In this document: piece after piece, positions 4,023 through 42,224 of the stretch
Numbering within the stretch: position 1 is the first letter of the stretch
How the letters are laid out: each line of letters begins with the position of its first letter
Assembly (NCBI GenBank): GCA_964370805.1
Contig: CAYJKM010000006.1
Coordinates: 1-42,250, forward strand
Reading direction: 5' to 3'
Source of the DNA: an uncultured Alphaproteobacteria bacterium
Lineage (GTDB): Bacteria; Electryoneota; RPQS01
DNA: 42,250 nt
Notes under the pieces: generated by a model
Seen by the model: only the letters and a program-made list of their open reading frames with translations
Databases searched by the model: none
What the model was told of the DNA's origin: nothing
Program-made: the position numbers and the translations under genes

Positions 4023-4109
4023 TTCCCCTTAAACTTTATCCAAAAAGGTACTCGCGCCGGAAGGAGCGCCGGCGTTTTGACTGCGCAGGCCATTTGGACG
4101 AGCCTAAAT

Positions 4110-4138
4110 TTGACTTGGTCAACCCTTTTTGGTAGATT
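4110..4138 (+). promoter_or_regulatory. sigma70 promoter with palindrome over the -35
   Basis: TTGACT-17 nt-TAGATT; TTGAC-N3-GTCAA inverted repeat at 4110-4122. Confidence 0.55.
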
Positions 4139-4290
4139 ATGCGAAATACCCTCGGCCGAGGATTCATCCTTGCCGGAACTTTTTGACGAGCGAGTCTTCC
4201 GCTGAAGAAGTGGCTGGAATCGCTCGTTTTCTTGTTGTCTCACACACAACCTGAACTTATTAAGGCGACCGACGCATTGGAGGTGCAGTC

Positions 4291-5217: not shown

Positions 5218-5282
5218 CGACATCTGTCTGGCCGGTCGTTTTCGCCAGCACACAGTACATCGTCACAAGTAGGATTTCAGAC

Positions 5283-8464: not shown

Positions 8465-10159
8465 ATGAACTCACGCCTTCCGAATCTCTTACTGAATAAC
8501 AACCTGCTCTCGCAGGAGCAGTTCCTGATTTTCAAGTCGCGGCAAAAGGACTCCGGCAACTCGGTGGTCACGGAGCTGGCCAAGCTCGGCGTGATCAGTG
8601 AGGATCAAATTGCGACGTTTCTTGCGTCCTATTATGATTTGCCGAAGCTCGATTTGGAACAGTCGGAGATTCCTGAGGCCGTGCGCAAGCTGCTCTCGCC
8701 GGAGTTCATTCAGCGCTATCAGGTGCTGCCGGTCAAGCGCACGGGCAAAACGCTGCAGATTGCGCTTGTCGATCCCAGCATTGATTTCGTGCTGGAAGAC
8801 ATCAAGTTTATTACCGGTTTCAACGTCCAGCCCTGCATTGTGACGGAAACGCAGTTTCTGCGCGCCATCGAGCTTTACTATCATATGGGCGGGACGCTGG
8901 ACAAGATCCTCAAAGATATTGGGGACGATCCGGGTGTGGAGTTGGTACAGACGAAGGGCGACGCGGAGATGGACAAGCTCCGCGAAGAAATCGAAGCCGC
9001 GCCGATCGTCAAGCTGCTCGATGGGATTATTGCCGACGCCGTTCAAAGGGGGGCATCGGATATTCACATTGAACCGTACGAGCAGACGCTGCGCGTCCGC
9101 TTTCGCATCGACGGTGTGCTGGCCGAGGTGATGTCGCCGCCCTATCACATGCGGAATGCGATCATCTCGCGGGCGAAGATCATGGCGAATCTCAATATCG
9201 CCGAGCGCCGCGTGCCGCAAGACGGTCACATCAAGATGAAGCTGTCGGACCGCACGATTGACTTGCGCATGTCCACCTTGCCGACTCTGTATGGCGAGAA
9301 GGTCGTGATGCGAATTCTCGATAAGTCGAACTTGACGCTCGACCTGAGTACGTTCGGATTCGAGGAGAAAGCGCTGGAAGATTTTGCCAAAGCGATTCGC
9401 GCGCCTTACGGAATGATCCTGGTGACCGGACCGACTGGTTCCGGCAAAACCACAACGTTGTACAGCTGTTTAGCCAAGCTGAACTCGCCGACCGTGAACA
9501 CGATGAGTGCGGAAGACCCCGTTGAGTACAACTTTTCGGGATTGAATCAGGTGCAAGTGCGGGATGAAGTGGGGCTGACGTTCGCCACCGCGCTCAAGGC
9601 GTTCTTGCGGCAGGACCCGGATATCATCATGATCGGCGAGATTCGCGATTTGGAGACCGGATCGATTGCCGTGCGCGCCGCGTTGACGGGTCACTTGGTG
9701 CTCTCGACCTTGCATACCAACTCGGCATCGGCGACCATTTCACGTATGACGGACATGGGAATCGAGCGCTTTCTCGTGTCATCGTCACTTACTTTGATCG
9801 TGGCGCAGCGGTTGATTCGCAAGATCTGTCCGAAATGCAAGGTGCCGGTCGAGGTTCATCCCGAGGCGCTCTGCGAAATCGGCATGGATCCGGTCAAGAA
9901 TAAGGGTCGGCTGTTTTACCACGGAGCCGGCTGCCTCGACTGCAACAACAGCGGTTATCGAGGGCGAAGCGGCATCTACGAAGTGATGCCGATCTCGCCG
10001 AAAATCCGCACCATGATTCTGGACGGCAAGTCGGCGGCCGAATTAGAGGAGACGGCCGTGGCGGAGGGCATGCTGACGCTGCGTCAAGGTGCATTGAAGA
10101 AGTTTGAGCGCGGCATAACGACCATCGAAGAAGTGCTTCGCGTGACCGGTGATTTCTAA
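8465..10159 (+). CDS. pilB: Type IV pilus assembly ATPase PilB
   Basis: ASDIHIEP, GPTGSGKTT, EDPVE, RQDPDIIMIGEIRD, TGHLVLSTLH, CPKC...CLDC tetracysteine motif. Confidence 0.96.
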   Translation: MNSRLPNLLLNNNLLSQEQFLIFKSRQKDSGNSVVTELAKLGVISEDQIATFLASYYDLPKLDLEQSEIPEAVRKLLSPEFIQRYQVLPVKRTGKTLQIALVDPSIDFVLEDIKFITGFNVQPCIVTETQFLRAIELYYHMGGTLDKILKDIGDDPGVELVQTKGDAEMDKLREEIEAAPIVKLLDGIIADAVQRGASDIHIEPYEQTLRVRFRIDGVLAEVMSPPYHMRNAIISRAKIMANLNIAERRVPQDGHIKMKLSDRTIDLRMSTLPTLYGEKVVMRILDKSNLTLDLSTFGFEEKALEDFAKAIRAPYGMILVTGPTGSGKTTTLYSCLAKLNSPTVNTMSAEDPVEYNFSGLNQVQVRDEVGLTFATALKAFLRQDPDIIMIGEIRDLETGSIAVRAALTGHLVLSTLHTNSASATISRMTDMGIERFLVSSSLTLIVAQRLIRKICPKCKVPVEVHPEALCEIGMDPVKNKGRLFYHGAGCLDCNNSGYRGRSGIYEVMPISPKIRTMILDGKSAAELEETAVAEGMLTLRQGALKKFERGITTIEEVLRVTGDF

Positions 10160-10171
10160 GTGGAGAGCAAT

Positions 10172-11083
10172 ATGAGAAGCCGTTTGTCACTTTATCTGAA
10201 CGATCTCTCGCTTGAGGAGATCCTCTATCTCGAAGAAGAACTCGAGCGACGGAAAGAAAAGTACCGCAAGCACTACGCGGTCTTGTCCGTGCAGACTGAT
10301 CCGCCGGTGCTGCGGGCGGAAAGCGCGCTGCCGCTGCAGCAATTGACCCGCGACCTGCGCCGCTACATGGGGGAATGTGCCGCCGTGGGCGCGGGAACCA
10401 TTCTGACCTATTCGCCGGAAATGTCTGTACTGCTCTTTCATTCGGTCGAGAACGCAAGCCGCACGTGCTCGGCTTTGCTCAGCGGCCTGCCGGAACTGAA
10501 CGGGCGGGCCGGCCACACCTCATACCGAGTCAATTTGAAGATGGGAATCGCCGCCGGGACGGACATCCTCGCCCCCGGCTCGCCGCGTTGCGTGCGGAAA
10601 TCCATCTTGGTGAAACGGGCTAATCAATGCGCGTGGCGAAGCGCGGCGGGCACGGTGATGATGGATGAGAACAGCTATCAGGAGTGGCCGGAGAAATTCT
10701 CGGCGGTGCGGGTGCCGGTGGAAATCGAGGGACAGCACATTTATCGTGCCGTTCCCGGGACCATCGGCCGCGACAGCGACCGCTATGACAACGAAGCGCT
10801 GAACACGTTCCTGAACAAGGTGTGCGACGCGCAGCTCGGCACGTTGAAATACGGCACGGAACGTATCGACGCGAAGGACATCGGCAGCAGCTGGGGAACG
10901 GCCGTCGATTCGCTGGAGCTGCGGCTCGAAGCCTACGATCCAAAGACGGGTAGAAACCTCAGTTACTCCGAGCGGATCGCGATCGCGGATTATTCGGATC
11001 GCATGGAGACGGTTAAACGCCTGCTAAGCGGAGTCGGACTGGCCTTAGTGCGGCATGAAACGTCGGTCACGTCCGGCGTGTGA
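10172..11083 (+). CDS. Class III nucleotidyl-cyclase-fold protein with degenerate catalytic motifs
   Basis: Pattern YAVLSVQTD...GTILTYSPEMSVLLF...LKMGIAAG...VKRANQC...AAGTVMMDENSY follows the cyclase-homology layout; GGAGAG RBS. Confidence 0.6.
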   Translation: MRSRLSLYLNDLSLEEILYLEEELERRKEKYRKHYAVLSVQTDPPVLRAESALPLQQLTRDLRRYMGECAAVGAGTILTYSPEMSVLLFHSVENASRTCSALLSGLPELNGRAGHTSYRVNLKMGIAAGTDILAPGSPRCVRKSILVKRANQCAWRSAAGTVMMDENSYQEWPEKFSAVRVPVEIEGQHIYRAVPGTIGRDSDRYDNEALNTFLNKVCDAQLGTLKYGTERIDAKDIGSSWGTAVDSLELRLEAYDPKTGRNLSYSERIAIADYSDRMETVKRLLSGVGLALVRHETSVTSGV

Positions 11084-24600: not shown

Positions 24601-24734
24601 TCTTCAATGATCTGACCCTGAACGATGACGACGCAGCGACGCCGGTGCTGATCAGCGTGGATACCCGTCAAGGCGACGCGTACGCGTTTACCGAGACATT
24701 TACGCTGCGCGCGGCGCTGCCGGGCGGCCCCTGA
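18693..24734 (+). CDS. Giant lipoprotein with invasin/intimin-like Ig (Big_1) repeats
   Basis: Lipobox-like LWFG|C; recurring (A/P)A(D/N)GxSx(T/S)xxxAxVxDxxGNPV...VxF...G motif about every 95 aa; Thr/Ser/Val-rich. Confidence 0.85.
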   Translation: MRRRFMMRVWLPACTLATMVLWFGCEQKGDISPTGSSRQVLTFIDTVTVDPMILAPGGTASVEARILSELNEPAVGEDVRFSVTRGSLAGAHADTTIRSDSLGRARTTYTAPADTGTVLVRTELLSMSELRTTSLLVSTTDSPGEGLLSVWSDFDSLYADNGTSYTRIYARLRNEQHNPVGGVDIHFSTTVGTITSPVITDVLTGTAVSTLVSSTEIGTAVVVARTGQTSDTVEVVFLTPAEASQIIVSTSVPQLTAGVDSAIVMARVFDMNSLPVVDNTLVFFSTTRGTLTALSARTTDGVAVTVLLASPSTGEAVITATTGNQVTGQASVQIVPGPVAAISVSADADTMYADNSSETTITANVVDNFGNGVAQGTPIAFSATGGTVLGSSTVGPNGQATTSFRAGLDIGQATIIASNLNIQGSVSIYLQGTPATSIALTVNPLELEANGTSQAQLRALVLDEHNQPVSNGTSVTFTSESGVISGGDGGPSSLQQRNHRKDTGAWASAIERSNVVVPVSSDSKYGLSSKHSPITSTYTTVTAAGYAVATLTSPTTAGGDEIGAAVGELSDEQPVNYVAGAPAMIEVTPQAQELPADGVSSTTVSCVVTDAFGNNVGSGVAVTASSTLGSLNPISGYTNNSGVFVTTLVSSRQRGMCAVVATVEGASGYGELQFVAPDVAGVVLGADQISILANGLSTAMLTAMAVDQYGLPVSGASANWQVSAGPGSLLPLSSVTDTLGMVRALFYSGASEIDADQNVTVTIESHSDMRMIRQLGVSMAAWVDDEQLPADGNSTTPVNVQVRETTSGVAIPEATVRFAVNNGSIPQTAVTDASGVAVANYESSEVPGAVEINCLYGDTLRAQAALYLTDTAADTVIAAVAQNELTADGVSSTLVTALVFNEGMDVVPNTPVTFEVDGAGSFFPAIVYTNENGIAISTYQTAALTQDEEVTLNVSIERSNVESQVMLRGVSMMANSVLQAMPANGTSTTDVSVELRFASSLVAISGATVQFGSSLGSVPASAVTDSSGVARVTFTAGTEVGVATVIARFGNLLTDTLSIDLFAPAANMLSMEAVNATLLADGVNSTILTSMVTDQMGAPVNGAEVAWTLNGAGSLASAVTLTDASGMAVNVYTAPASSTDQSSSIQATAGAGSDEINVQTLGVTLSLSVDDNLLPANGLSMTQVRAQLRETTSMVAIQNAVVNFGTSLGSVAGTVLTDEAGMAVADFTTGMEAGTATIVSLYGNTLSDTTTLQMYVPSASSISLSPSESSIRADGVATIFVTAMVLDEAGVPLGLAPVSWAVEAGTIQFAQTATSSVGSATMTYQSAASMTDNPVDISITCGTVTQSTTVLARGVTVDITAVPNIVIADGNSTSQIQAHVYETTTNIAVSGEDVSFGTTLGTIPNYTTTNSSGLAVVLLTSSTETGTANVTATVGAGLMDQTQVTFAPSTPTTLSLTASPTILLADNVSTSTLTAVVTDQNGNPVPNGTQVRFSIPPQSGSLENLRTTTAGVATNVLTSSSTPDTLTIVAWAESNSEARDSVTVVYIVGPPSVVQLSAQSDTLQANGIAVDSITAHVTDAVGHALSNVEVLFTTTVGNITSSRVTNSSGDARVAFTSAQTGTALITANASGALGYYTVYLIPGDPNSIQMEYFPSSVGVRGSGRNETLLITATVRDANNNPVIDGTPVYFNINNSPGGGDFLSSYGAIPTINGQASVSYNSGTVSGSVRIRAICDDITAVSTEILIYAGPPYIEDISDGCLSSHMSLASSPCNMFGMDFVGDSVMLVALVGDRYNNPVTPGTAVYFTTSGGVVTTATGYTDSTGFARVTLYSGNPLPTIDRWYNTLSDPNMGGAILCTFPPTQPGVAKVLATSAGVDANGDSVIVWSSTEVIFNYRAPVLAIREASVNGDPDERELFIGENALITIATYDPDYWPLVYGSTLTFSASKGNVYPGTITIGCPGDTTYTVSFFNDLTLNDDDAATPVLISVDTRQGDAYAFTETFTLRAALPGGP

Positions 24735-26744: not shown

Positions 26745-28400
26745 ATGAGATTCCGAAATCCCGGGCAAGAAGGGCAACGCAACGGGCATAAAACTCGACA
26801 GGATCGGGGCCTGATCCTGATGTCAACCGTGGTGATGGTGAGCGGGCTGCTCTTCCTGGCCGCCACGGCGGCCATTCGAGCCAATCACGAGACTCAGCTT
26901 ACTTCGGTCGAATTGGACAACTCGCGCGCATTCTATGCGGCCGAGGCAGCGATTGAATGGGGTTCGGCCGAATTGTCCACGCTGCTCGCTAACAACGTGG
27001 ACCCGACGCAGGCTCAACTGGATGCCTTGACAAAACCCTCGCTAAGCGGATTCACGTTCGAGGACTATCGTATTCTGAAGGTGGGAGCGATGACTGAGGA
27101 GCAGATTTCGCAGGGCGATTACGCCGGCCTCCGCGGGTACGTGCAGCGATACAGCGTCGAGGCTCAGGCAAACAGCAATCGTCGCAACGCGGTTGTGTCG
27201 CGCGAGATTCAGCACCAGTTCATCCCGCTGTTTCAGTTCGGCGTCTTTTACGAAGGTGATCTGGAGATATTCCCCGGTCCCCTGATGACGTTTGCCGGAC
27301 CGATTCATACGAACTCCAATCTGTACATGGGGGCCGAGTCTGAGATTCGGTGCGAATCGTCCGTGACGGCGGTGGGAAAATACTGGCATTACCGGAAGGA
27401 CAACGCGCATCCCGATCCGCCGGGGGCTGTGAAGATCATGGATCAGTTCAATGTCTGGCAAAACGTCTGGCGCGGCAGCTACTGGCTGGATAACCGCCGG
27501 GCGACGTGGGCGTCGGAGGCCACAGCAGTGTGGGGCGGCAATTTCCGCGACGAATCGCATGGATTGTCAACGCTGCGCTTGCCCATCCCGCCGGCGGCGG
27601 ACCAGCATATTACGATTGAACGGGGACTTGTCTCCGATGGCGAATCGGAACGAGCGGCCAAGTACTGGTACAAAGCGACGGTACGTTACATCAATGGCGT
27701 GCTGACGGACAGCATGGGCACGCCGTTGAATCAGCCCGGCGTTTACACGTACACGGCGAACAAGTTTTGGGACGACCGGGAAGACAAGTACGTTGACTGT
27801 GTCGATATCAACATCCAGACGATGGTGAACAACAATTACCGGCCGCCCAACGGCATTCTTTACATCAGCGAGTCGCGGGGCGATTTCGGAGCCGTGCGCG
27901 TCATCAACGGCAGCACGCTGCCGGTCGGCGGATTGACGATTGTTACGGATCGCCCGATGTATGTCAAGGGGCACTACAACACCGTCGCCAAAAAGGGTGC
28001 GGCGCTGTACAGCGATGCCTTAACGCTGCTGTCGCCCTCTTGGAATGACGCGAATTCAGCCCAGCCGTTGAGCAATCGCGTGCCCTCCAGCCAGACCGTG
28101 AATGCCTGCATCCTGACGGGACATGTGGCGACGATTAACGGCGGCACGTACAGCGGCGGATTGGAGAACAATTTCCGGTTTCTCGAACGGTGGTCCACCC
28201 AGACCGTCACCTATCGCGGCAGCATTATCGATTTATGGTTTAGCGTGTACGCGACGCGGCCGTGGATCTACGGAGTCTACTACACGGCTCCGCAGCGGAA
28301 CTGGGCCTACGACACGGACTTGTTGAACCCGGCCAACTGGCCGCCGGGAACTCCGCGCGTACAGACCGTGCAGCGCGGTTCATGGCGGCAGATCAGCTAA
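26745..28400 (+). CDS. pilX: Large PilX-like minor pilin
   Basis: RG|LILMS (no Glu5), AFYAAEAAIE, GPIHTNSNL, long C-terminal domain ending SWRQIS. Confidence 0.72.
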   Translation: MRFRNPGQEGQRNGHKTRQDRGLILMSTVVMVSGLLFLAATAAIRANHETQLTSVELDNSRAFYAAEAAIEWGSAELSTLLANNVDPTQAQLDALTKPSLSGFTFEDYRILKVGAMTEEQISQGDYAGLRGYVQRYSVEAQANSNRRNAVVSREIQHQFIPLFQFGVFYEGDLEIFPGPLMTFAGPIHTNSNLYMGAESEIRCESSVTAVGKYWHYRKDNAHPDPPGAVKIMDQFNVWQNVWRGSYWLDNRRATWASEATAVWGGNFRDESHGLSTLRLPIPPAADQHITIERGLVSDGESERAAKYWYKATVRYINGVLTDSMGTPLNQPGVYTYTANKFWDDREDKYVDCVDINIQTMVNNNYRPPNGILYISESRGDFGAVRVINGSTLPVGGLTIVTDRPMYVKGHYNTVAKKGAALYSDALTLLSPSWNDANSAQPLSNRVPSSQTVNACILTGHVATINGGTYSGGLENNFRFLERWSTQTVTYRGSIIDLWFSVYATRPWIYGVYYTAPQRNWAYDTDLLNPANWPPGTPRVQTVQRGSWRQIS

Positions 28401-29661: not shown

Positions 29662-30777
29662 ATGGAACTTCGTGGACTGCTCGACCTATTGTTTATCAAG
29701 AAAGCGTCAGATCTGCATTTGCGCACAGGCGCGTTGCCGGTACTGCGAATCAACGGCGAATTATTCGCCACGCGTCCGGAGAAAATTTCTACCGAGGAAA
29801 TGGATGCGTTCTTGAAAGAGATTCTGACGCCTGCCCAGCGGGATACGCTGGTGCGCGACAAAGAGCTTGATTTGGCGATCACCGTGCCGGGTTACGGGCG
29901 CACGCGCGTCAATGCATTTTACCAGCGCGGTACGGCCGCATTGGCCGTGCGCGCCATCAAGACGCAGATTCCCACGTTCGCCGAGCTCATGCTGCCGCCC
30001 GTCATGGAGCAGTTTTCGAACATGCGGCGCGGTCTGATCCTGTTCACGGGAGCGACCGGATCGGGGAAATCCACGACGATGGCGTCGCTGATCGAACATA
30101 TCAATAATCGCCGAAGCTGCAACATCTTGACCATTGAAGACCCGATTGAGTACATTTTTTCGAATAAGAAATCATTGATTGCGCAGCGCGAGGTGATGAT
30201 TGACACTCACACCTACTACGCCGCGTTGATTCACGCCTTGCGCGAGGATCCGGACATCATCATGGTCGGCGAGATCCGCGACGCGGACTCCATGATGATG
30301 GCGCTGCATGCGGCGGAAACCGGGCACCTCGTATTGACGTCGCTGCACACGTTGAACGCCGTCGAAGCGATCAACCGCATTATTTCGTTCTTCGCGCTCA
30401 ACGAGCAGGGACAGATCCGCTCGATCCTGGCGGGAACGGTACAGGCGATCGTATCACAGCGACTGGTCTCCCGCTCGGATAAGCCGGGGCGCGTGCCGCT
30501 CGTGGAATGTCTGGTCAACACGGCGGCCGTGCGCGAGTGTTTGTCGGATCCGGACAAGATGTACCTGTTGCAGAGCCTGATCGAGGACGGCAGCGCTCAC
30601 GGCATGCAGTCATTCGATCAATCGATTCTCACTCTTTACCGCAGCAATACGATCTCGTACGAAACGGCGATTGAGAGCGCGACGAATCCGAATGACCTCG
30701 AGATGGCAATTCGCGGGATCAGTTCGTCCGCCTCGAAACTAAACGCCTCGGCGGAGGCCGTGGGGCTTAGGGCATAG
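29662..30777 (+). CDS. pilU: Second retraction ATPase (PilT/PilU family)
   Basis: ASDLHL, GATGSGKST, EDPIE, REDPDIIMVGEIRD, ETGHL, GMQSFDQS; AIRNLIRE replaced by AVRECLSD. Confidence 0.8.
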   Translation: MELRGLLDLLFIKKASDLHLRTGALPVLRINGELFATRPEKISTEEMDAFLKEILTPAQRDTLVRDKELDLAITVPGYGRTRVNAFYQRGTAALAVRAIKTQIPTFAELMLPPVMEQFSNMRRGLILFTGATGSGKSTTMASLIEHINNRRSCNILTIEDPIEYIFSNKKSLIAQREVMIDTHTYYAALIHALREDPDIIMVGEIRDADSMMMALHAAETGHLVLTSLHTLNAVEAINRIISFFALNEQGQIRSILAGTVQAIVSQRLVSRSDKPGRVPLVECLVNTAAVRECLSDPDKMYLLQSLIEDGSAHGMQSFDQSILTLYRSNTISYETAIESATNPNDLEMAIRGISSSASKLNASAEAVGLRA

Positions 30778-30826: not shown

Positions 30827-31540
30827 ATGGGCGAAAACCGGACGATTGTTGGCAAATTAGATGATCGCGGCATGCTTCCATTGCTGGACATGGCCTTGGC
30901 CGAAGAGTGGGGCGGCAGCATGCAGGTCAAACGCGGTCTGTTGACGGGCACGATTTGGACCGTCAGCGGACAAGTCGTGCATGCCGAATTGAAGGGCGTC
31001 GGCACGCTGGACGAGCTGGAAGCGTTCGAGGCGGTCTCGAGCTGGCGAGACGGCGAATACATTCTCGAATCCGGCGCATTGCCACCGGCCCGCAGCATCC
31101 GCATCGCCACAGAAAGATTGCTGGCAACCCTGCGCGACTCGCTCGCCAGCCAGCAGGTACAGTTCGGCGAGGGGCAGCGGTCCGCGGTCGTGGGGCGCAC
31201 GCTGCTGCAGGTCTTCGACGGGCTGCGCGAGCGCGTTCCCGGACTGGAATCCCTGAGTCTGGTGCGTGGGACGATTTGTGAAGCGACCACCTCACAGGAC
31301 ACGGACGAAATGGATTGGATGGATCGACAGTTGAAGTCCTTTTTTGCCAAGGATCATGAAGAACCGGACACGTTGTTTGTACAGGAAGGCGCGCACACGT
31401 TGCTGATTTTGAAACAAGGGAGTCTGGCCACTGTGCTTTCCGCGCGGACCGGGACGTCGCCGGAGGCGTTGTTCTGGGCCGGATCGGAGGCCCAGCGCCG
31501 CGTACTTGAATCCGCACAAGCGATACTGTCACCGAGGTAA
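30827..31540 (+). CDS. DUF4388-domain protein with possible degenerate roadblock/LC7-like C-terminus
   Basis: GKLDD...LL...G...V...G.I...GQVVHAE...EAFEAVSSWRDGEY pattern; GGAGG RBS. Confidence 0.65.
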   Translation: MGENRTIVGKLDDRGMLPLLDMALAEEWGGSMQVKRGLLTGTIWTVSGQVVHAELKGVGTLDELEAFEAVSSWRDGEYILESGALPPARSIRIATERLLATLRDSLASQQVQFGEGQRSAVVGRTLLQVFDGLRERVPGLESLSLVRGTICEATTSQDTDEMDWMDRQLKSFFAKDHEEPDTLFVQEGAHTLLILKQGSLATVLSARTGTSPEALFWAGSEAQRRVLESAQAILSPR

Positions 31541-31543
31541 TGC

Positions 31544-32959
31544 ATGGCAGCTAACGCAAGATCACAAACGCTTTTGGACAGCTTGCTCGAGAAGCAGGTC
31601 ATTTCGCAGGAGCAGCACCAAACGGTGCAGAGTCTTCAGGCGGAGACCGGGCATTCAGCCGAACAAATTCTGATTGAATCCGGCACGCTGACCGAAGAAG
31701 ACTTGGCTGCGTTCATCAGCGACGCACTGCAGGTTCGCAGCCTGAAGTTGGAAGACATCGAAATTGATCGCGAGGCCGTTAAGCATGTCCCCGCAGCCGT
31801 GGCGCATCGTTTCCAACTCATACCCGTGCGGCGCAGCGGCAACGCGCTCGCCGTGGTATTTGCGAATCCGACCGATCCGGAAGCTATGCGGGCCCTGCAA
31901 GCGGTAACCGACTTCGAGATCATTCCATTTGTCGGACGGGCCGACGCGATCGAACACGCTGTGTTTCTGCATTACGGGGAAGCGCCGGCCGAAGTTGCGG
32001 CTCCGGACTCAGCAGTCTCGGCGTCGCGGGCTCAGCCGTTGATCGAGGATGATCGCATCAGCCATATGGGCAAAAGTATTCAGGTCAACCGGCAATGGTC
32101 GTTTGAGCAGATGGTATCGGATGCCGCCAACCAGTTCCCCGTCAGCGTAGCAAAGGCTGTGGCTGAACTGCTGCCGGAGACGGAATACAATCCGTTTCTG
32201 TGCTGGGGACAGGCGGGGTGCGGCAAGTCCCACTTGCTCCACGCCATCGCCAATCATTTGATCGCCCATGCGCCCCTGAAGCGCTTCATATTGACCAGCG
32301 GCCAGAAGTTCTGCGACAATCTGTTTGAAGCCATCCGCGACAAGAAGCTGAACCTGTTCCGCTATCTTTATCGCGAACTCGACGTGCTGATGATCGATGA
32401 CGCCGACGCGCTGTTGAGCAGGGATTGGGCGCAACAAGAATTAGTTGAGACCTTTCAATCGCTGCGCAAGCATGGCAAGCAATTCGTATTAGCGAGTCGC
32501 CAGAATCTGGCCGTTAACCCGCGCACGGTCGCTAAGCTCCGGGACGTGCTGGAGACGGGCGTGATCGCCGGCTTCGGCGAGTATTCGGTGGAAGCGAAAC
32601 TGGCAATGATCAGCCGCCAGAAGGGCGGGATCGAGCTGCCCTCGGAAATGCTCATTTACCTGGTGCGCCGCTGCGGCGACAGCGTGACCGATTTGCTGGG
32701 CGTGCTGCAGCAAGTCACGATGCTCGCCTTGCACGGCGAGCGCATCATCACGCAGGAAGCCGTGGATGACTTGATCCGGCTGTGTGGACACGATTTGGAA
32801 GGCGCCAGCCAGGATTTTCAGGCGGCCCTGACTGAAGCTCAGGTTGAAATGCCGGCTGATTCGCGACCGCCCGAGTCGGCCGAGACGACTGAAGACAAAC
32901 CATCTCAAAAGAGCAGGAACAGACAGCATGGTGAACAAGCCGCAAATCCTCATCGTTGA
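31544..32959 (+). CDS. PilB/GspE N-terminal (MshEN-like) domain fused to a DnaA-like AAA+ domain
   Basis: N-half parallels the PilB N-terminus (ISQEQ...VPAAVAHRFQLIPV...ANP). C-half: SFEQMV...NQF...AVAE...YNPF..WGQAGCGKSHLLHAIAN...YRELDVLMIDD...QQEL. Confidence 0.85.
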   Translation: MAANARSQTLLDSLLEKQVISQEQHQTVQSLQAETGHSAEQILIESGTLTEEDLAAFISDALQVRSLKLEDIEIDREAVKHVPAAVAHRFQLIPVRRSGNALAVVFANPTDPEAMRALQAVTDFEIIPFVGRADAIEHAVFLHYGEAPAEVAAPDSAVSASRAQPLIEDDRISHMGKSIQVNRQWSFEQMVSDAANQFPVSVAKAVAELLPETEYNPFLCWGQAGCGKSHLLHAIANHLIAHAPLKRFILTSGQKFCDNLFEAIRDKKLNLFRYLYRELDVLMIDDADALLSRDWAQQELVETFQSLRKHGKQFVLASRQNLAVNPRTVAKLRDVLETGVIAGFGEYSVEAKLAMISRQKGGIELPSEMLIYLVRRCGDSVTDLLGVLQQVTMLALHGERIITQEAVDDLIRLCGHDLEGASQDFQAALTEAQVEMPADSRPPESAETTEDKPSQKSRNRQHGEQAANPHR

Positions 32960-33308
32960 TGACGATCCGCGATATCTTGAATTGCTGCAATTCGCGTTAG
33001 AGAGCGAAGGGTTTCGCGTGCTGGCCGCCCGCAATCCGCGTCAAGTGCAGGCCCTGGCGGTCTCGTACCGTCCGGACATGATCATCTCGGACGTGGTGAT
33101 GCCGGAAATGGACGGCTTTGACGTTGCTGCCAACTTGCGCGCGGATGCGCGAACAGCGGATATCCCCGTGATCTTTCTAACCGCCCGCAGCCAGGAGAGC
33201 GACCGACTGGAGGGGCTGCGAGCGGGTGCGGTTCAATATATGACCAAGCCATTTTCGCCGGCCGCATTGGTTGACGCCGTGCGTTCGGTCATGAAGGAGG
33301 CATCGTGA
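32928..33308 (+). CDS. Single-domain response regulator (CheY/PilH-like)
   Basis: ILIVDDD, ISDVVMPEMDG, IPVIFLTA, YMTKPF. Confidence 0.9.
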   Translation: MVNKPQILIVDDDPRYLELLQFALESEGFRVLAARNPRQVQALAVSYRPDMIISDVVMPEMDGFDVAANLRADARTADIPVIFLTARSQESDRLEGLRAGAVQYMTKPFSPAALVDAVRSVMKEAS

Positions 33309-34480
33309 CCGTTTCGACAGCACCTGCGGCTGCCGCCGACCGTACGACTCGATCCGGTGATGGTTGGGGCGAGCTCGTTCACTCGTCGCGCGATATCATC
33401 TATCTCTTGCGGCCGGACGGCACCTACTTGGACGTCAACCAGCAGCTGACTCGAGTATTGCGGCGTCCCCGGGAGCATATCGTTGGCGCGCACTTTACGA
33501 CTCACCTGGAAAAGGAGCATGCGGCCGTCGCCGAGCGCGTACTGAAAGACCTCGTGCAGCGGCGCGCTCCGGAACGAACCACTCGGATGTTTCACCTTCC
33601 GGGCAATGAGCCGCAGCTTTTCGAGATCATCGAGACCCCGTTGATCCGGAACGGCGAAGTCTGGGCCATCGCCGGAGTCGGACGCGATATTTCGCAGGAA
33701 GCGGAATTGGAGCGCAAGCTCTGGGACACGGTGGAGACTCAGCGTTACTCACTGGACTTTGCCCTGCGCACGTCGCTGGGGCTGATCAAGGGCTACATTT
33801 ACACGCTCGGACAGAGTGAGACCCTGTCGGACGATCGGCGCATCCGCTACACGCGAATTATCGAGGACGAAATCGATCATCTGGCGAAGATTGTTGAGGA
33901 CATTCTGGATTTTCGCCGCATGGAAGTCGGGAATTACGAGTTCAACGAAGAGGTCGTACAGCTCTCCGATTGCGTGAACATGGTCATGCGGCAATTTGAA
34001 GACGAGGCTCATCGCCGCGAGATTGAAATCAGCGCGCAAATGCCGCAGAAGATGGACCCGCTGTACTTGTTTCCGGAAGCGGTCACGCGCGTGCTGGTGA
34101 ATCTCGTTCAGAATGCCATCCAACACACCCTGCACAGCGGGCGGATCGAACTGATCGTGGAAGACAACGACCTCTACGTCGATGTGATTGTCCGTGACAA
34201 CGGGATTGGCATCGCTGAGGACGAGCTGCCGTATATTTTCGAGAAATTCTACAAAGGCAAGAGCTCGGAAAGCGAAGCGGGTCAGGGAATTGGAATGGGA
34301 CTTGCTATTACGAAGACGCTGGTGGCGGCAATGGGGGGGAAGATCTGGGCGCAGAGCAAACCCGGCAAGGGGAGCGAATTTCGCGTGATGCTGCCGCGCC
34401 GCCTCTACCACAGTGATGCTACGCACGACGAAGGCTCTGATCTCGCCGCACTGTCGGCGGTCGGCGCAGAGACTTATTGA
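33305..34480 (+). CDS. Cytoplasmic PAS histidine-kinase-like protein lacking the phospho-His
   Basis: PAS (DGTYLDVN...GRDIS); DHp reads DFALRTSLGLIKGY; intact NLVQNA, DNGIG, IFEKF, GIGMGL. Confidence 0.85.
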   Translation: MTVSTAPAAAADRTTRSGDGWGELVHSSRDIIYLLRPDGTYLDVNQQLTRVLRRPREHIVGAHFTTHLEKEHAAVAERVLKDLVQRRAPERTTRMFHLPGNEPQLFEIIETPLIRNGEVWAIAGVGRDISQEAELERKLWDTVETQRYSLDFALRTSLGLIKGYIYTLGQSETLSDDRRIRYTRIIEDEIDHLAKIVEDILDFRRMEVGNYEFNEEVVQLSDCVNMVMRQFEDEAHRREIEISAQMPQKMDPLYLFPEAVTRVLVNLVQNAIQHTLHSGRIELIVEDNDLYVDVIVRDNGIGIAEDELPYIFEKFYKGKSSESEAGQGIGMGLAITKTLVAAMGGKIWAQSKPGKGSEFRVMLPRRLYHSDATHDEGSDLAALSAVGAETY

Positions 34481-34490
34481 GGGCACAGGC

Positions 34491-36212
34491 ATGATGAAGC
34501 GTCACAAGTTGGGAATTGGTTTGGACATCGGGAGCCGCTCGATTCAGCTCTCGGTCCTGCGTTCGGCCAAAAACGGTACGGTGCTGGAGCGGTTAGCCTC
34601 CAAGGAGCTGCCGCATGATACGATCGTGGAAGGCGCCGTGATGGATTCACAGGTCCTCTCGGAGGCAATCTCCTCGCTGCTGAAAGAGCACAAGCTGCAG
34701 GGCAAGGAGGCGGCGCTCTCGATCAGCGGCCGTCAGGTCATGATTAAGCGGATCGACACGGATGAGATGACGGATGACGAACTGGACTCCGCCATCATGT
34801 ACGAGGCGAAGAGCAATCTGCCCTTCGACATCAGCGAAGTGTCCTTGGATTACGCTCGCCTGCCGCAGGAGCTGGATTCCGGTCGCATGGAGGTCTTGCT
34901 GGTGGCGGCGAAGAACGAGATCATCCTGGATGCGACGGAACCCGTGCGTTGGGCCGGCGGCCGTCCCGGGCTGTTGGAAGCCGAGCCGTTTGCCCTGCAA
35001 GCGGCGCTGCATGAAGCCGGTTATCTCGACAGTGACATGCCCGTTGCCGCTCTGCAAATCGGTTTTCAATCGACAGATGTTACGCTCTTTCAGAATGGAC
35101 AGTTTGAGACGAACCGCAACCTGCACATCGGCGGGAAGACATATATTGAAGAGTTGATCCGGGATTTGGGCATCACCTTCGAGCGGGCCGCCGGCATTCT
35201 GGCTCGCCCGCACCGGACGGAAGAAGAGCAGCATGCGTTAGATCGGATTGCTCAGCGGGTCGCCGACAAGCTGTCGGACTTGATTGAGCGTGCCATGCCG
35301 GAGTATTTCGGCGACACGGCTGACCGTCACGTGGGTACGGTCGCGCTGTGCGGCGGGGGCGCACACTTGCCGATGCTCGAAATTGCGCTGCGCCAAAAGC
35401 TCGGCGTCCAGGTGGAGATCGTCAATCCGTTTCGCCATCTGGAGATCAACAGCCACAATGTGAATCCGGCGCACACCGAGTGCGGACCGGAATTCACAAC
35501 CTCGGTCGGGCTGGCGTTGCGCGCGCTCGGTGATATCCATACCGGCTTCGATCTACTGTCGCCGTCGCACAAGAAGACGGCAGGCGGCGTCAACAATCCC
35601 GGTTCCGGCGCGGTCGCGGCGATTCTGACGTTCTCGGCGATGCTGCTGGGAATGGTCATGCTGCATATCACACAGGAGAACAAGCTTGCCGCATTGCAGG
35701 GTCGGCTCGACAATCTGAAAAAGGAAACCGACCTCTATCGCGACAAGATCGCGTTAGTCGAAGACCTGACGCAGAAACGCGCGGACATCGCCGCCCGCAT
35801 TGACGTCATCGCAAGTCTGGACAAGAATCGCTTCGCGCGCGTGAAGATGGCGCAGCTGCTGAATCGAACGCTGCCGGAATTGACCTGGCTGTCGAGCGTG
35901 TCCGAAGTGAGCACGAGTCGCGGGCCCGGATTCAACGTCTCAGGGGTGACCAGCTCCAATCTCAAGGTCAGCCAGTTCATGACCAATTTACTGCGGGATC
36001 AGGAGGTGCGCGGAGTTGATCTGTTGGTTTCGGAACAGGGCGAGATGGCCGAGGTGGACATCACGCAGTTCACGCTCCAAGTCGCCTATCCGGTCCTGGG
36101 GATCGTGGCTCCGCCGCCGCTGCGGCCGGCCAACGAACTTGCGCAGGGGGCGAAAGCCATTCGCGAGAAGCGCAGAGCGCAGTCTCAAATGATGAAAGAA
36201 TCCTCAAAATAG
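34491..36212 (+). CDS. pilM: PilM-PilN fusion protein
   Basis: GLDIGS...LCGGGA...VGLALR (PilM) continues in frame into FDLLSP, a TM helix, coiled coil and LPELTWL...FMTNL (PilN). Confidence 0.88.
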   Translation: MMKRHKLGIGLDIGSRSIQLSVLRSAKNGTVLERLASKELPHDTIVEGAVMDSQVLSEAISSLLKEHKLQGKEAALSISGRQVMIKRIDTDEMTDDELDSAIMYEAKSNLPFDISEVSLDYARLPQELDSGRMEVLLVAAKNEIILDATEPVRWAGGRPGLLEAEPFALQAALHEAGYLDSDMPVAALQIGFQSTDVTLFQNGQFETNRNLHIGGKTYIEELIRDLGITFERAAGILARPHRTEEEQHALDRIAQRVADKLSDLIERAMPEYFGDTADRHVGTVALCGGGAHLPMLEIALRQKLGVQVEIVNPFRHLEINSHNVNPAHTECGPEFTTSVGLALRALGDIHTGFDLLSPSHKKTAGGVNNPGSGAVAAILTFSAMLLGMVMLHITQENKLAALQGRLDNLKKETDLYRDKIALVEDLTQKRADIAARIDVIASLDKNRFARVKMAQLLNRTLPELTWLSSVSEVSTSRGPGFNVSGVTSSNLKVSQFMTNLLRDQEVRGVDLLVSEQGEMAEVDITQFTLQVAYPVLGIVAPPPLRPANELAQGAKAIREKRRAQSQMMKESSK

Positions 36213-39470: not shown

Positions 39471-42224
39471 ATGATTCGGTGGTCGCTTTTCTTACTGCTT
39501 TTCACAGTCACGTCCCTTCCCGTCATCGGCGGGCCTGCGGATCAATGGACGGAGAGTGAGTATCTCCCCGGTCGTTTGATCGTGGACTTCTCTCAGTCCA
39601 TCAATCCACGTGTTCCGGCGTTGGATCAGAATGGGATCGTGCAGCTTGGAATCCCCTCGCTGGATAACATCTTTCAGGAATTTGAAGTGACGAAAGCTGT
39701 CCGGCTTGTCCCGGACGGTATCATTGCCAAACTGAAAACACCGTCGGACTTGTATCGCACGTACGTGCTTGTGTTCCGTCCGGAGTATTCCGTTCTGGAT
39801 GCCTTGGATCGTTTGGCGGGCGACGCCAACGTGGTCAGCGTTCAGCCGGACATTCTTTACAGGATTGACCGCATTCCCAACGATGCTTTCTGGAACAGCA
39901 TGTGGGACAAGCAGATCATGGGCGTGGACGTCGCGTGGGAATTCTCGACTGGCGATCCAAGTATCATCTGTGCCGGAATTGACACCGGCGTGGATTGGAA
40001 CCATCCCGATATCGGCATGATGGACACCAGCAATGCATCCCTCGGCTGGCGGCTCTGGGTGAATCCGGATGAAGACTTGGATCAGGACGGGATTCCGTAC
40101 GTCTGGACCGATTATCCGGGCGATCCTGACGATCTGAACGGCCTTGACGACGGTGAAAACGGCTACGTTGACGATTTCCTCGGCTGGGATTTCATCAACA
40201 ACATTGGCGGCTGCTATCCTGGCGAAGATTGCGACAACATGGACAACGACATGTTTGGTTTGGAATCGCACGGTACGCACGTCGGCGGACTCATGGCCGC
40301 CCACGGAAACAATGGAATTGGGGTGGCCGGCGGAATGTGGGACGGCCGGCTGATGGCGCTTCGTGCCGGATATCTGAGCAATGATAATCCTCCGCAGGGA
40401 TACATGCCGGAGAGTGCCACAGCCCCGGCGATTTATTACGCCGCCGCCAATGGAGCCAGAGTGCTTAACATGTCTTACGGCGGCGGATCGTTTTCACCGC
40501 AGGGCAACAACGCCTGCCAGTCGGCTTGGAACCAGGGTTGCCTGTTATTCGCGGCTTCGGGAAACAACTACGGTAACATTAATCCTCACTACCCGGCAGC
40601 TTATGACAATGTGATCGCCGTAAATTCGATTGATAACGGCGACATCATCTCCGACTTTTCGAATTACGGAACGTGGACGGATCTAAATGCGCCGGGCGGC
40701 AGTCCGGGCGTGTGGAGCACGATCATCAATGGCTACACCGCTTATTTCGGCACGTCGATGGCCAGCCCGAACGCGGCCGGCGTCGGCGCCTTGCTGTGGA
40801 GTCTTTTTCCTGAGTACACGAACGTGCAGATTCGAGATTGGCTTTTTGACTCCGCGGAAGATATTACGGACGAGAACCCTGGTATTCCACCGAACTACCT
40901 TGGCCACGGCCGCGTGAGTGCCGAAAATGCGGTCGCCTCGGTGTTTCCATTGTTGACGGTAGAGAGTCAGTCGCTCACGGATGCGTCGGGCGATAATGAT
41001 CATCGCCTCGAAGCCGGGGAAACAGGACAACTCGTTCTGACGGTTGCGAACGCGGAAGGCTGGACTGAAGGTGAAGATCTCACCGCCACCGTCTCCACGA
41101 CGAATGGCAGTTTGACGATTACGAACGGCACGTTCTCACTGGGGGATATTCTGCCCGGCAGTAGCGCGAACAACGCCGCAAATCCGGTGAATATCACGGC
41201 CGCGGCGGACATCTACGCGGCGTTCTGGGCGGAACTCGCGGTCGTCTTCTCCTCACCAAGCGGTTTCCAACAGACTGTGTTCACGAACCTCCGTGTCGGA
41301 CGCGGCCATGTCTTGATCGTCGATGACGACGGTGCGAACAACTACGAGACGTACTACGAGACAACGATCGAACAATTCACGCTGACTCCCGATGTCTGGT
41401 CCACGTCGCTTGACGGCGCGATGCCGGCCAGCGAACTGGAGCATTATTCGGCAATTATTTGGGAGTGCGGGAACGAAGCCACGAACACGCTCACGACCGA
41501 AGATCAAGCCAACCTGACCAATTTCTTGAATGCGGGCGGTGATCTGTTGCTGGTCGGTCAGAACATCACGGAAGACATCGGCGCATCGGCGTTTCACACA
41601 GACGTCTTGCATGCTCAGAACGAAGGTGTGGCAGGCAACCGTCAGCTCACCGGGATTGCCGGGAACGTCATTTCGGACGGCCTCGAATTGTTATTGCTTG
41701 GCGGAGCCTGTGCCGGAAATGGCCAACTCAGCCCATCCCGCATCCTGCCTCTAACCGGCGCCGTGGCAATGTTTGATTACACCGATGGCGGCATCGGCGC
41801 TGTTCAGTACGAAGGCGCGGGCAAAGTGGCCTACTTCGCCTTTGCGCTGGAAGCGGCGTGCGGCATGGCCGAGACGGACCATCACAACGTTGTTATTCGT
41901 GAAGTGCTGGAGTGGTTTGGAATCAATGATGCGCCCGAGCCGCCTGCTGGAGAGCTTCCTACTACGGTGGCGTTGCACGGCAACTATCCTAATCCCTTCA
42001 ATCCGACCACCACGATCTCCTTTGATCTGTCCACGCGTACCGCCGTCGAACTCAAGGTGTATGACGTGACCGGTCGTGAAGTAGCGACGCTGGTGAGCAC
42101 AAGCTTGAATGCAGGAACTCATCACGTGCAGTTTGACGGTTCTAATCTCGCCAGCGGCGTTTATCTCGTCCGCTTGAATGCCGGAAACACGAATCTGTCC
42201 TCAAAGATGGTCCTGATGAAGTGA
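39471..42224 (+). CDS. Secreted S8 (subtilisin-like) serine protease with T9SS type-A-like C-terminal sorting domain
   Basis: Signal peptide; triad GIDTG, HGTHVGG, GTSMASP; oxyanion AASGN; tail NYPNPFNP...VYDVTGREV...LASGVYLVRL...KMVLMK. Confidence 0.93.
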   Translation: MIRWSLFLLLFTVTSLPVIGGPADQWTESEYLPGRLIVDFSQSINPRVPALDQNGIVQLGIPSLDNIFQEFEVTKAVRLVPDGIIAKLKTPSDLYRTYVLVFRPEYSVLDALDRLAGDANVVSVQPDILYRIDRIPNDAFWNSMWDKQIMGVDVAWEFSTGDPSIICAGIDTGVDWNHPDIGMMDTSNASLGWRLWVNPDEDLDQDGIPYVWTDYPGDPDDLNGLDDGENGYVDDFLGWDFINNIGGCYPGEDCDNMDNDMFGLESHGTHVGGLMAAHGNNGIGVAGGMWDGRLMALRAGYLSNDNPPQGYMPESATAPAIYYAAANGARVLNMSYGGGSFSPQGNNACQSAWNQGCLLFAASGNNYGNINPHYPAAYDNVIAVNSIDNGDIISDFSNYGTWTDLNAPGGSPGVWSTIINGYTAYFGTSMASPNAAGVGALLWSLFPEYTNVQIRDWLFDSAEDITDENPGIPPNYLGHGRVSAENAVASVFPLLTVESQSLTDASGDNDHRLEAGETGQLVLTVANAEGWTEGEDLTATVSTTNGSLTITNGTFSLGDILPGSSANNAANPVNITAAADIYAAFWAELAVVFSSPSGFQQTVFTNLRVGRGHVLIVDDDGANNYETYYETTIEQFTLTPDVWSTSLDGAMPASELEHYSAIIWECGNEATNTLTTEDQANLTNFLNAGGDLLLVGQNITEDIGASAFHTDVLHAQNEGVAGNRQLTGIAGNVISDGLELLLLGGACAGNGQLSPSRILPLTGAVAMFDYTDGGIGAVQYEGAGKVAYFAFALEAACGMAETDHHNVVIREVLEWFGINDAPEPPAGELPTTVALHGNYPNPFNPTTTISFDLSTRTAVELKVYDVTGREVATLVSTSLNAGTHHVQFDGSNLASGVYLVRLNAGNTNLSSKMVLMK

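Follow-up and report, generated by a model that had tools for sequence, protein, structure and literature searches.

Known type IV pilus (T4P) machines draw their power and regulation from PilT-class hexameric ATPases together with small cofactors such as PilZ, FimX and CheY-like proteins. AAA+ proteins of the initiator clade are nucleotide-dependent switches that oligomerise by way of an arginine (Arg) finger; in DnaA, for which the roles of the Arg finger, sensor I and sensor II are taken here from the DnaA literature, domain III binds single-stranded DNA (ssDNA) through the initiator-specific motif, this binding needs the formation of an ATP-dependent filament, and the Hda-type inactivation of DnaA requires an Arg finger. 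A further point of reference is the GspL protein of the type II secretion system (T2SS), which combines an actin-like cytoplasmic domain and a PilN-like periplasmic part in one polypeptide. The gene considered here lies in a 42,250-nucleotide stretch (hereafter the window, taken as a whole) of contig CAYJKM010000006.1, part of a 65.6%-complete metagenome-assembled genome (MAG; assembly GCA_964370805.1), and encodes a protein (hereafter the fusion) in which a PilB-type N-terminal domain precedes a AAA+ module of the DnaA domain III type; all organisms in which it is found are uncultured. We consider it quite likely that the fusion functions in pilus biology, and we lean, with less assurance, towards the more specific view that it is an accessory component (an adaptor or switch) of a particular T4P system, nucleotide-binding but catalytically degenerate in the clade to which the window's protein belongs.

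An original prediction, made from the DNA letters of this gene, had proposed a PilB/GspE-like N-terminus, a DnaA domain III module and a low-complexity tail in place of domain IV, and profile and fold comparisons bear out all three. In Pfam, MshEN (PF05157) matches residues 64-148 (E 3.2e-14, 53.1 bits against a cut-off of 23.1) and Bac_DnaA (PF00308) matches residues 182-339 (E 7.8e-34, 117.6 bits against 23), followed by a weak Hda_lid match at residues 359-403 that stays under its cut-off (19.5 bits against 27). Neither DnaA_N nor Bac_DnaA_C matches in Pfam, and the protein is thus without DnaA domains I and IV; the T2SSE (PF00437) ATPase domain, which the same models find in the window's PilB, PilT and PilT-like genes, likewise has no match in the fusion. 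Among NCBIfam models, PilB TIGR02538 covers residues 10-149 only, DnaA TIGR00362 covers residues 166-412 only and does not reach its cut-off (150.5 bits against 343.9), and Hda TIGR03420 stops well short of its own (70.7 bits against 194.8). The AlphaFold2 (AF2) model, built from 37 family members, has a mean pLDDT of 85.8, with the linker at residues 154-172 and the tail beyond about residue 445 below 50. In Foldseek its AAA+ part superposes on DnaA domain III (8bv3_A, TMt 0.90, rmsd 2.7; 2z4r_A, TMt 0.91, rmsd 1.8 A) and its N-terminal part on MshE-N (5htl_B, TMt 0.76). The family profile spans all of domain III (IIIa and IIIb) of the B. subtilis and T. maritima DnaA proteins (E 2e-49 and 9e-45, the AAA+ alignment targets being 8bv3, 8btg and 2z4r) and aligns with the N-termini of PilB proteins (E 2e-26 to 3e-24). 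In the last 56 residues model confidence is low and conservation is lacking (mean column conservation 0.15). The start of the protein is set by an ATG 4 nucleotides past the stop of the upstream gene and preceded by GAGG, and in loci of the same order the alignment of orthologs begins at residue 1.

The state of the nucleotide pocket was followed by mapping motif positions onto E. coli K-12 DnaA (L145), on which residue identities were checked, in three groups: 27 canonical DnaA proteins, 31 fusion domains from WOR-3 and other lineages, and 20 members of the window's clade. Two of these members, P0095 and P0096, were assigned to the clade by hidden Markov model (HMM) scores and tree placement, and W_L144, a partial AAA match, was excluded from both the motif counts and the AAA tree. 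The Walker A lysine (K178) is present throughout (27/27, 31/31 and 20/20, in the order of the groups given), and the acidic residues of Walker B nearly so (D235 in 27/27, 31/31 and 19/20; D236 in 27/27, 30/31 and 17/20). The remaining catalytic positions are complete in canonical DnaA, where each is kept in 27/27, and largely lost in the window's clade: sensor I D269 is found in 21/31 of the other fusions and 1/20 of the clade (Arg in 11/20), R281 in 20/31 and 2/20, the Arg finger R285 in 22/31 and 0/20 (the clade having A in 9, L in 6, V in 3 and E in 2), and sensor II R334 in 25/31 and 2/20. The R245-equivalent is Trp in 19/20 clade members, and the position equivalent to 283, two residues before the lost finger, is Arg or Lys in 20/20, as it is in 14/27 canonical DnaA. 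The window's protein has V, R and T at positions R285, D269 and R334, and the motif readings made earlier against E. coli DnaA prove exact (TSDR to ASRQ; RLKSRF to KLRDVL, that is, R281 to K and R285 to V; NVRELEG to SVTDLLG, with R334 to T), as does the statement that both Walker motifs are intact (A, GQAGCGKS; B, MIDD). On these counts motif decay is specific to the window's clade, and distant relatives mostly keep the Arg finger and the sensors. Nucleotide binding by this DnaA paralog, an earlier claim, is very likely given the Walker A lysine in all 20 clade members, and with its finger and sensors the protein has lost what DnaA needs for an oligomer ATPase activity that depends on the Arg finger; the DNA-binding domain IV is missing as well. 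As the pocket is kept and the finger and sensors are gone, the simplest reading is that nucleotide is bound and not hydrolysed by trans-activation, and we think it likely, on balance, that the fusion is a non-hydrolysing nucleotide binder.

Conservation is spread unevenly over the protein. Of six regions compared within the clade, the alpha/beta subdomain of the N-terminal domain has the highest mean column conservation (0.78), followed by the AAA base (0.63), the motif helices that precede the subdomain (0.49), the lid (0.46), the linker (0.38) and the tail. The family alignment (A1) contains 19 invariant and 35 nearly invariant columns, and 11 of the 19 invariant ones fall at residues 63-148; in the AAA+ module the initiator-specific helix pair is well conserved, with N270, F272, R273 and Y274 nearly invariant.

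The architecture is not confined to this contig. Both PF05157 and PF00308 are found in 50 of the 94 matches (P0001-P0050, 31-70% identity) returned by a search of 5.8 billion proteins in 90% clusters; these come from ENA, JGI, NCBI and Logan assemblies, two of them labelled candidate division KSB1, and they are named in their sources as 'chromosomal replication initiation ATPase DnaA', as 'DnaA/Hda family protein' or as hypothetical. A full-length fusion is present in 26 of 79 genomes of the window's phylum, all within one order: in 23 of the 24 genomes of family f1, to which the window's genome belongs (the single miss being a 56%-complete MAG), in 3 of 6 genomes of family f2, and in none of the 49 genomes of the phylum's other seven families. 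An assembly chimera or a singleton, a concern that the original prediction had itself raised, is ruled out by the 50 clusters and the 26 genomes. Of the fusion-bearing genomes, 21/26 also contain a separate AAA+-only match (an open frame of about 465-535 residues, truncated in one case), and a full DnaA_N, Bac_DnaA and Bac_DnaA_C protein is encoded apart from the fusion in a 100%-complete genome of the same genus (G054) and is encoded as well in a WOR-3 genome (G079). By this gene content the fusion is a paralog of DnaA and not the initiator. Canonical DnaA was not found in the window's own incomplete MAG, where the fusion and a weak match on contig C67 were the only candidates (blastp with the AAA part gave nothing on that contig), and this result is uninformative. 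A profile scan of genome contigs with A1 was dominated by the Walker A pattern, and of the 80 loci retained a single one (L003) holds a full-length fusion.

When 95 AAA+ modules are placed in a tree by a quick maximum-likelihood search, the DnaA proteins of the window's phylum form one clade (Shimodaira-Hasegawa-like approximate likelihood ratio test, SH-aLRT, 99) and those of WOR-3 another (87), and all fusion and tandem modules fall in one 68-row group apart from the host DnaA clades (SH-aLRT 87); the WOR-3 and other fusions make up a 29-row clade (95). This grouping argues that the fusions are not recent copies of host DnaA. The window's clade sits on long branches, and a long-branched canonical DnaA, P0081, attaches beside it. 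Scored with an HMM made from the N-domain of the window's clade, the N-domains of PilB proteins (61-100 bits) rank as high as those of distant fusions (60-137 bits), and an approximately unbiased (AU) test does not reject one clade for all fusions (p 0.189), which does not show one.

The genomic setting points to the pilus. The whole window is one large T4P supercluster, and in all 18 loci from other genomes of the order (detection at E <= 1e-5) the genes run in the order PilT-like ATPase, (DUF4388 protein), fusion, CheY-like regulator, kinase-like protein lacking the phospho-acceptor histidine (His), fused PilM-PilN, PilO and secretin. Every locus that extends far enough has the PilT-like, kinase-like, PilM-PilN, PilO and secretin genes, and a TPR gene is detected in 10/18; pilB lies 20-24 kb from the fusion on one contig in many genomes of the order, and the cluster's PilB is, by its resemblance to the fusion, the paralogous source type of the N-terminal domain. 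Among the annotated open reading frames (ORFs) of the window, no replication genes occur in the fusion's neighbourhood, which consists entirely of pilus and signalling genes. The CheY-like regulator conserves its Asp pocket, the phospho-acceptor Asp, and the Thr/Ser and Lys positions, and the kinase-like protein has Phe or Tyr at the H-box His position in 19/19 orthologs, a pairing that we take to resemble that of the Caulobacter pseudokinase DivL with DivK. The kinase-like protein (PAS/HisKA/HATPase_c) has ATP-binding boxes N, G1 and G2 that look intact. Between the window and genus g5, identity is 29-32% for the fusion, 30-34% for the regulator and 28-30% for the kinase-like protein, against 69-71% for the PilT-like ATPase and 67-72% for the secretin, and the fusion therefore evolves like the regulatory genes and not like the structural core. 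The fusion was not found in genus g14 of family f2; in a 96%-complete genome of that genus (G049; locus L162, G049:C18, 10921-13795) the PilT-like gene is followed directly by PilM-PilN with the other cluster genes kept, and since the fusion, CheY-like and kinase-like genes are missing there as a block, the three behave as one dispensable cassette.

The fused PilM-PilN orthologs are 573-599 residues long and, at E <= 1e-140, are confined to families f1 and f2 (29 of 30 genomes, with one ortholog frame-broken and one divided across contigs). All families of the phylum have a second PilM elsewhere, about 28% identical, and the fused protein thus marks an order-specific extra pilus system. In one genome (G053; locus L107, G053:C16, 4018-5743) the PilM-PilN ortholog occupies two adjacent frames, covering residues 27-346 and 348-599; PilO and the TPR gene of this locus are split too, and either sequencing frameshifts or real breaks are possible.

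Comparable arrangements are found well outside the window's phylum. In WOR-3, 21 of 121 sampled genomes carry a full-length fusion, two more carry partial or divergent ones, and the remainder have only DnaA; the fusion stands directly upstream of a same-strand fused PilM-PilN in 20/20 loci, with a TPR-like gene upstream in 17/20. The locus L003 runs pilC, pilin, prepilin peptidase, TPR, an MshEN-only protein, TPR, a 411-residue MshEN plus Bac_DnaA protein (4011-5246) and fused PilM-PilN. The stand-alone MshEN-domain protein of this locus (2964-3467, plus strand, 167 residues) sits between the two TPR genes just 5' of the fusion, and such a protein was detected in 3/20 related WOR-3 loci (E <= 1e-4). 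Strong single-frame PilM-PilN matches occur in 20 of the 21 fusion-bearing WOR-3 genomes (the twenty-first is fragmented) and in G152, which has a divergent fusion, and about 60 other WOR-3 genomes have separate PilM (about 350 residues) and PilN (about 200 residues) frames; as the genomes are related, this co-occurrence should be read as a pattern without statistical weight. Two MshEN plus Bac_DnaA clusters (72 and 56 members), most often from Hydrogenedentota, are listed in the ESM Atlas. For the 913-residue Hydrogenedens-type protein P0130, 12 of the 26 metagenome loci returned were examined: in 11 of them pilB comes immediately after the fusion, the twelfth ending at the gene, and pilT follows in 4/12. 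Further uncharacterised DnaA-module architectures (P0097, P0098, P0099, P0104, P0109, P0113, P0115 and P0123) comprise larger relatives, some of 1248-1990 residues with MshEN and a DnaA module at the start and a second DnaA module at the end, and tandem Bac_DnaA proteins of 585-697 residues that lack MshEN and DnaA_C, one of them labelled Gemmatimonadota. Judged by domain content and gene neighbourhood, what we propose as a family has in common an MshEN-type N-terminal domain, a linker and a Bac_DnaA module without DnaA_C, encoded beside pilM-pilN or pilB. Pilus genes accompany the fusion in 18/18 loci of the window's order, 20/20 of WOR-3 and 11/12 of the Hydrogenedens type, three phylum-level lineages in all, and this synteny, together with the PilB-type N-terminal domain, supports the pilus connection that had been proposed. 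As the genes lie inside T4P clusters of several uncultured phyla, the fusion most likely serves the pilus and not replication.

How the fusion might act can be sketched as follows. Docking would be the task of the strongly conserved alpha/beta subdomain (T2SSE_N-like), which would hold the protein to the pilus base on its cytoplasmic side, either at PilM within the GspL-like PilM-PilN or at the motor socket contested by PilB and PilT. The fusion could then occupy or modulate the motor-docking site on PilM-PilN, and the nucleotide state of the AAA+ module, with the CheY-like regulator and the His-less kinase-like protein, would set whether the extension and retraction motors engage. In the window's clade, which keeps Walker A, has lost the Arg finger and both sensors (I and II) and shows decayed cyclic di-GMP (c-di-GMP) motifs, the protein would be a switch or a scaffold. 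This site is proposed because the best-conserved surface of the fusion belongs to the type of domain by which GspE docks on GspL, and PilM-PilN is GspL-like. The passages that we draw on from a 2024 review of PilB cofactors describe PilB as docked in a socket formed by PilM, with motors competing for the stator, and infer the contacts between the N1 domain (N1D) and PilM from the T2SS structures 4PHT and 2BH1. We put PilM-PilN forward as docking partner tentatively, as possible more than probable; a complex prediction of PilM (18-row alignment) with fusion residues 1-150 returned a score of 0.01 (mark 0.32) and is evidence neither way.

Several observations weigh against the picture of an adaptor or switch at the pilus base. 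The Thermus extension ATPase PilF has no GSPII domain essential for PilMN binding (PMC6325625), and docking of the N-domain on PilM is therefore no general rule of T4P systems. In the Hydrogenedens-type loci the neighbour is pilB and not pilM, and the partner could equally be PilB, PilC or a TPR protein. The Arg or Lys two residues upstream of the lost finger could be a shifted finger, in which case the description as non-hydrolysing would be wrong, and the lack of a phospho-acceptor His in the kinase-like neighbour makes a simple two-component relay onto the fusion unlikely. We infer the interaction with the pilus base from gene context and from the type of N-domain, in uncultured organisms, and the window's clade and the WOR-3 and Hydrogenedens fusions may have one origin or several.

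The shifted-finger possibility leads to the strongest of the competing explanations, in which the fusion is an active ATPase that oligomerises as DnaA does, with R333 as its trans-acting finger, and serves as a third kind of energy-using part at the pilus base, for example by remodelling or gating a PilM-PilN ring. Walker A and B are kept, Arg or Lys stands at the position-283 equivalent in every clade member, the initiator-specific helix pair (N270, F272, R273, Y274) is well conserved, and the WOR-3 and other fusions mostly have the full catalytic set (R285 22/31, R334 25/31, D269 21/31), so that the ancestral family was probably active. However, the sensor I Asp (1/20) and sensor II Arg (2/20) have gone as well, the second acidic residue of Walker B varies (17/20), and as Arg or Lys at 283 also occurs in about half of the canonical DnaA proteins that keep R285 (14/27), it is no clade-specific replacement; we regard an active ATPase as unlikely in the window's clade. 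Loss of the catalytic and ligand motifs, fast evolution relative to the core pilus proteins and absence from one genus might instead suggest a pilus ATPase cofactor that was once active and is now decaying, with no function left to it. That explanation is the least credible of those considered, as 26 genomes have an open frame of full length, A1 retains its 19 invariant and 35 nearly invariant columns, Walker A among them, and the gene has a start with a Shine-Dalgarno sequence and is tightly coupled to the gene upstream.

The N-terminal domain and the AAA+ module each suggest a further possible function. An MshEN-type domain might bind c-di-GMP and relay this signal to its AAA+ module in the manner of MshE or PilB, and the fold is indeed present, with a weak match of the motif model NF053729 at residues 13-59 (E 9.9e-7). 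The motif, as given in PMC5013675, consists of two tandem copies of RLGxx(L/V/I)(L/V/I)xxG(L/V/I)(L/V/I)xxxxLxxxLxxQ, 24 residues each and separated by a 5-residue spacer, with Arg, Gly and Gln as the key residues. In the fusion the model reaches 28.5 bits against a cut-off of 38, the window's protein has 7 and 7 of 11 relaxed positions in its best register with RLG missing in both halves (the Arg and the first Gly are absent), and the 24 clade members average 7.1 and 7.4 of 11, with a full match in 0/24; the motif helices are also less conserved (0.49) than the alpha/beta subdomain (0.78). Near-canonical tandem motifs do occur in some distant members (P0130 with 10 and 10 of 11; P0117 and P0123 with 10 and 9), and 10/11 in both halves is reached by some Hydrogenedens-type and other members, but for the window's protein a c-di-GMP receptor seems improbable. 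Slightly less credible still is a role in DNA handling, in which the AAA+ module would bind incoming ssDNA during pilus-dependent uptake. T4P machines of similar kind mediate transformation in other bacteria (PMC6325625), the initiator-specific helix pair is conserved and 3r8f is among the fold matches. On the other side, competence genes (comEA, comEC and dprA types) are absent among the annotated window ORFs, and the protein has neither an Arg finger for an ATP-dependent filament nor the DNA-binding domain IV. Trp occupies, in 19/20 members, the equivalent of E. coli DnaA R245, which we take to be an ssDNA-contact residue. The original prediction had raised the possibility that pilus or surface state is linked to replication initiation. 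For such a link the AAA+ module would have to cap DnaA, sequester it or work in the way that Hda does; beyond homology, what points there is that a DnaA-type pocket could in principle accept an Arg finger from DnaA. The clamp-binding motif is absent from the N-terminus of all 24 clade members (the control, E. coli Hda, is positive, with QLSLP at residue 6), the Hda model TIGR03420 is far from reached, the fusion has no Arg finger, its neighbours are pilus and signalling genes, canonical DnaA is encoded elsewhere, and g14, a sister genus that has retained its pilus genes, dispenses with the gene as part of a block. We consider a replication role very improbable, below even DNA handling. Thus the nucleotide-binding DnaA paralog and its pilus connection, the latter by gene context, survive from the earlier interpretation, and the link to replication initiation finds no support.

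If the fusion is indeed an accessory component of the pilus, a DnaA-derived AAA+ protein encoded beside platform and motor genes in three phylum-level lineages would point to a hitherto unstudied level at which the pilus base is controlled or assembled, and would be a clear case of the ATPase of a replication initiator being recruited to a non-replicative machine. The family offers a natural series from catalytically complete members (the WOR-3 and Hydrogenedens types) to a pseudo-enzyme (the window's clade), with experimental controls built in. Annotation as 'chromosomal replication initiator' or 'DnaA/Hda family' misleads analyses of replication origins and gene content in these MAGs. One may go further and suppose that a so far unrecognised cytoplasmic component, a DnaA-type AAA+ protein, belongs to those T4P machines in which PilM and PilN are fused in the GspL-like manner. 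A docking domain of the PilB type would bring this component to the base of the pilus; it would be a catalytically complete, ATP-dependent oligomerising switch in WOR-3 and Hydrogenedentota, sensing c-di-GMP in some cases, and a pseudo-ATPase tied to a DivL-like His-less kinase and a CheY-like protein in the window's order. In this full form we think the proposal rather unlikely to hold; were a DnaA-type pilus component real, it would be a third class of nucleotide-driven pilus part, and might couple pilus activity to DNA handling or the cell cycle.

The features of the fusion and of its neighbours are collected below. The 5' part of the cluster contains, in order, pilB (8465), a 307-residue ORF, pilT, pilC, a PAS kinase, two sigma-54 response regulators and a pilin. 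The middle part continues with a 2013-residue Big_1/invasin-repeat protein, small genes with pilin-like N-termini, a 551-residue ORF, a TPR protein and the PilT-like ATPase, and the 3' part with the DUF4388 protein, the fusion, the CheY-like regulator, the PAS-kinase-like protein, fused PilM-PilN, a small ORF, PilO, another small ORF and the secretin. The 2013-residue protein (18693-24734, plus strand) has 15 Big_1 and 11 invasin-D3 repeat matches, lies between the pilin and regulator genes and the small pilin-like genes, and may be a pilus-associated adhesin. Two conserved ORFs are without a Pfam match: that of 307 residues between pilB and pilT (10160-11083, plus strand), and that of 551 residues upstream of the TPR gene (26745-28400, plus strand), which is 55-73% identical in 17/18 loci, the 6.5-kb locus L115 ending before it. 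Directly after the secretin gene is an S8 subtilase with a type IX secretion C-terminal sorting domain (Por_Secre_tail; 39471-42224, plus strand).

Table. Positions in the window of the fusion gene, its parts and the cluster genes discussed (aa, amino acid residues of the product).
Feature	Position	Strand	Evidence
Cluster's own PilB (MshEN + T2SSE), 23 kb upstream of fusion	8465..10159	+	27% identity to fusion aa 10-144
Second PilT-like ATPase, upstream of fusion	29662..30777	+	T2SSE E 2.2e-43; in 18/18 loci
DUF4388-domain protein, 237 aa, upstream neighbour; stop 4 nt before fusion start	30827..31540	+	Pfam DUF4388 E 1e-7; upstream in 13/18 loci
Whole fusion gene, PilB-N/MshEN-type domain + DnaA domain III-type AAA+ module, 471 aa	31544..32959	+	ORF, Pfam, NCBIfam, fold
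Four-helix part of MshEN-like domain, aa 1-62; helices 10-16, 22-35, 39-45, 51-61; two degenerate 24-residue c-di-GMP motifs	31544..31729	+	Model, NF053729, conservation 0.49
Alpha/beta T2SSE_N-type subdomain, aa 63-148; best conserved part of protein	31730..31987	+	Pfam MshEN 64-148, conservation 0.78
Disordered linker, aa 149-180	31988..32083	+	pLDDT <50 at aa 154-172, conservation 0.38
AAA+ base (DnaA domain IIIa) including initiator-specific helix pair, aa 181-345	32084..32578	+	Bac_DnaA 182-339, profile alignment, Foldseek TMt 0.90-0.91
Walker A, G222-QAGCGK-S229	32207..32230	+	G225, G227, K228 invariant in 37 sequences
Walker B, V281-LMIDD-286	32384..32401	+	D235-equivalent D 19/20, D236-equivalent D 17/20
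Sensor I position, A317-S-R319-Q (E. coli TSD269R), Asp to Arg	32492..32503	+	Motif counts
Box VII position, K331-L-R333-D-V335-L (E. coli R281-L-K-S-R285-F), Arg finger to Val	32534..32551	+	Motif counts
Lid (domain IIIb), aa 346-415; sensor II position T382 (E. coli R334) without Arg	32579..32788	+	Weak Hda_lid 359-403, motif counts
Variable low-complexity tail and stop, aa 416-471, in place of DnaA domain IV	32789..32959	+	No Bac_DnaA_C, pLDDT <50 from about aa 445, conservation 0.15
Single-domain CheY-like response regulator, downstream neighbour; ATG at 32928, overlaps fusion 3' end by 32 nt	32928..33308	+	Response_reg E 1.2e-29; in 17/18 loci
PAS + DHp + HATPase_c kinase-like protein; Phe152 at phospho-acceptor His position	33305..34480	+	Pfam
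Fused PilM-PilN (GspL-like architecture), likely true start near 34491	34413..36212	+	PilM_2 36-371, PilN 481-557; in 18/18 loci

Set beside the systems described so far, the fusion is assembled from familiar kinds, a pilus accessory factor and a DnaA-derived paralog, in an architecture that we rate as new in the literature searched. Full-text searches found no published description of an MshEN/GSPII domain joined to a DnaA-type module, in agreement with the earlier statement that no characterised protein has this architecture; 'DnaA' has 0 occurrences in the main text of the MshEN paper (PMC5013675), whose supplementary domain-architecture tables may list such fusions, and 'DnaA' and 'AAA+' have 0 occurrences in the main text of the 2024 review. 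With DnaA domain III (8BV3 and 8BTG of B. subtilis, 2Z4R of T. maritima, 1L8Q, 2HCB and 3R8F of A. aeolicus) the fusion has in common the fold, Walker A and B and the initiator-specific helix pair; unlike DnaA, it is without domains I, II and IV, has lost the Arg finger, the sensor I Asp and the sensor II Arg, and is encoded in a pilus cluster with true DnaA elsewhere. Hda and HdaA are likewise DnaA-derived AAA+ proteins without a DNA-binding domain, and the weak Hda_lid and the fold matches 3bos, 3sc3 and 5x06 recall them, but the fusion has neither the clamp-binding motif nor the Arg finger, and its 150-residue PilB-type N-domain is absent from Hda. The MshEN/GSPII N-domain of the T4P extension ATPases PilB, MshE and PilF has the same two-part fold as that of the fusion, where, in contrast, it is joined to an initiator-clade AAA+ module and not to a T2SSE (PilT-class) ATPase, and its c-di-GMP motifs are degenerate. 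The cofactors and regulators of PilB (FimX, PilZ, and the CheY-like PilG and PilH inputs) are, in the review passages cited above, cytoplasmic accessories that tune which motor engages the pilus base, as we suppose the fusion to do, and none of those described there has a AAA+ or DnaA-type module. By sequence, then, the fusion is not a member of DnaA, of Hda, of PilB/GspE or, by motif, of the c-di-GMP-binding MshEN receptors. The pairing of the GspE N1 domain with the cytoplasmic domain of GspL (2BH1, 4PHT) finds its likeness in the GspL-like PilM-PilN encoded beside the fusion, an analogy at the level of the genes, and by this analogy the fusion probably shares its docking mode with PilB and GspE.

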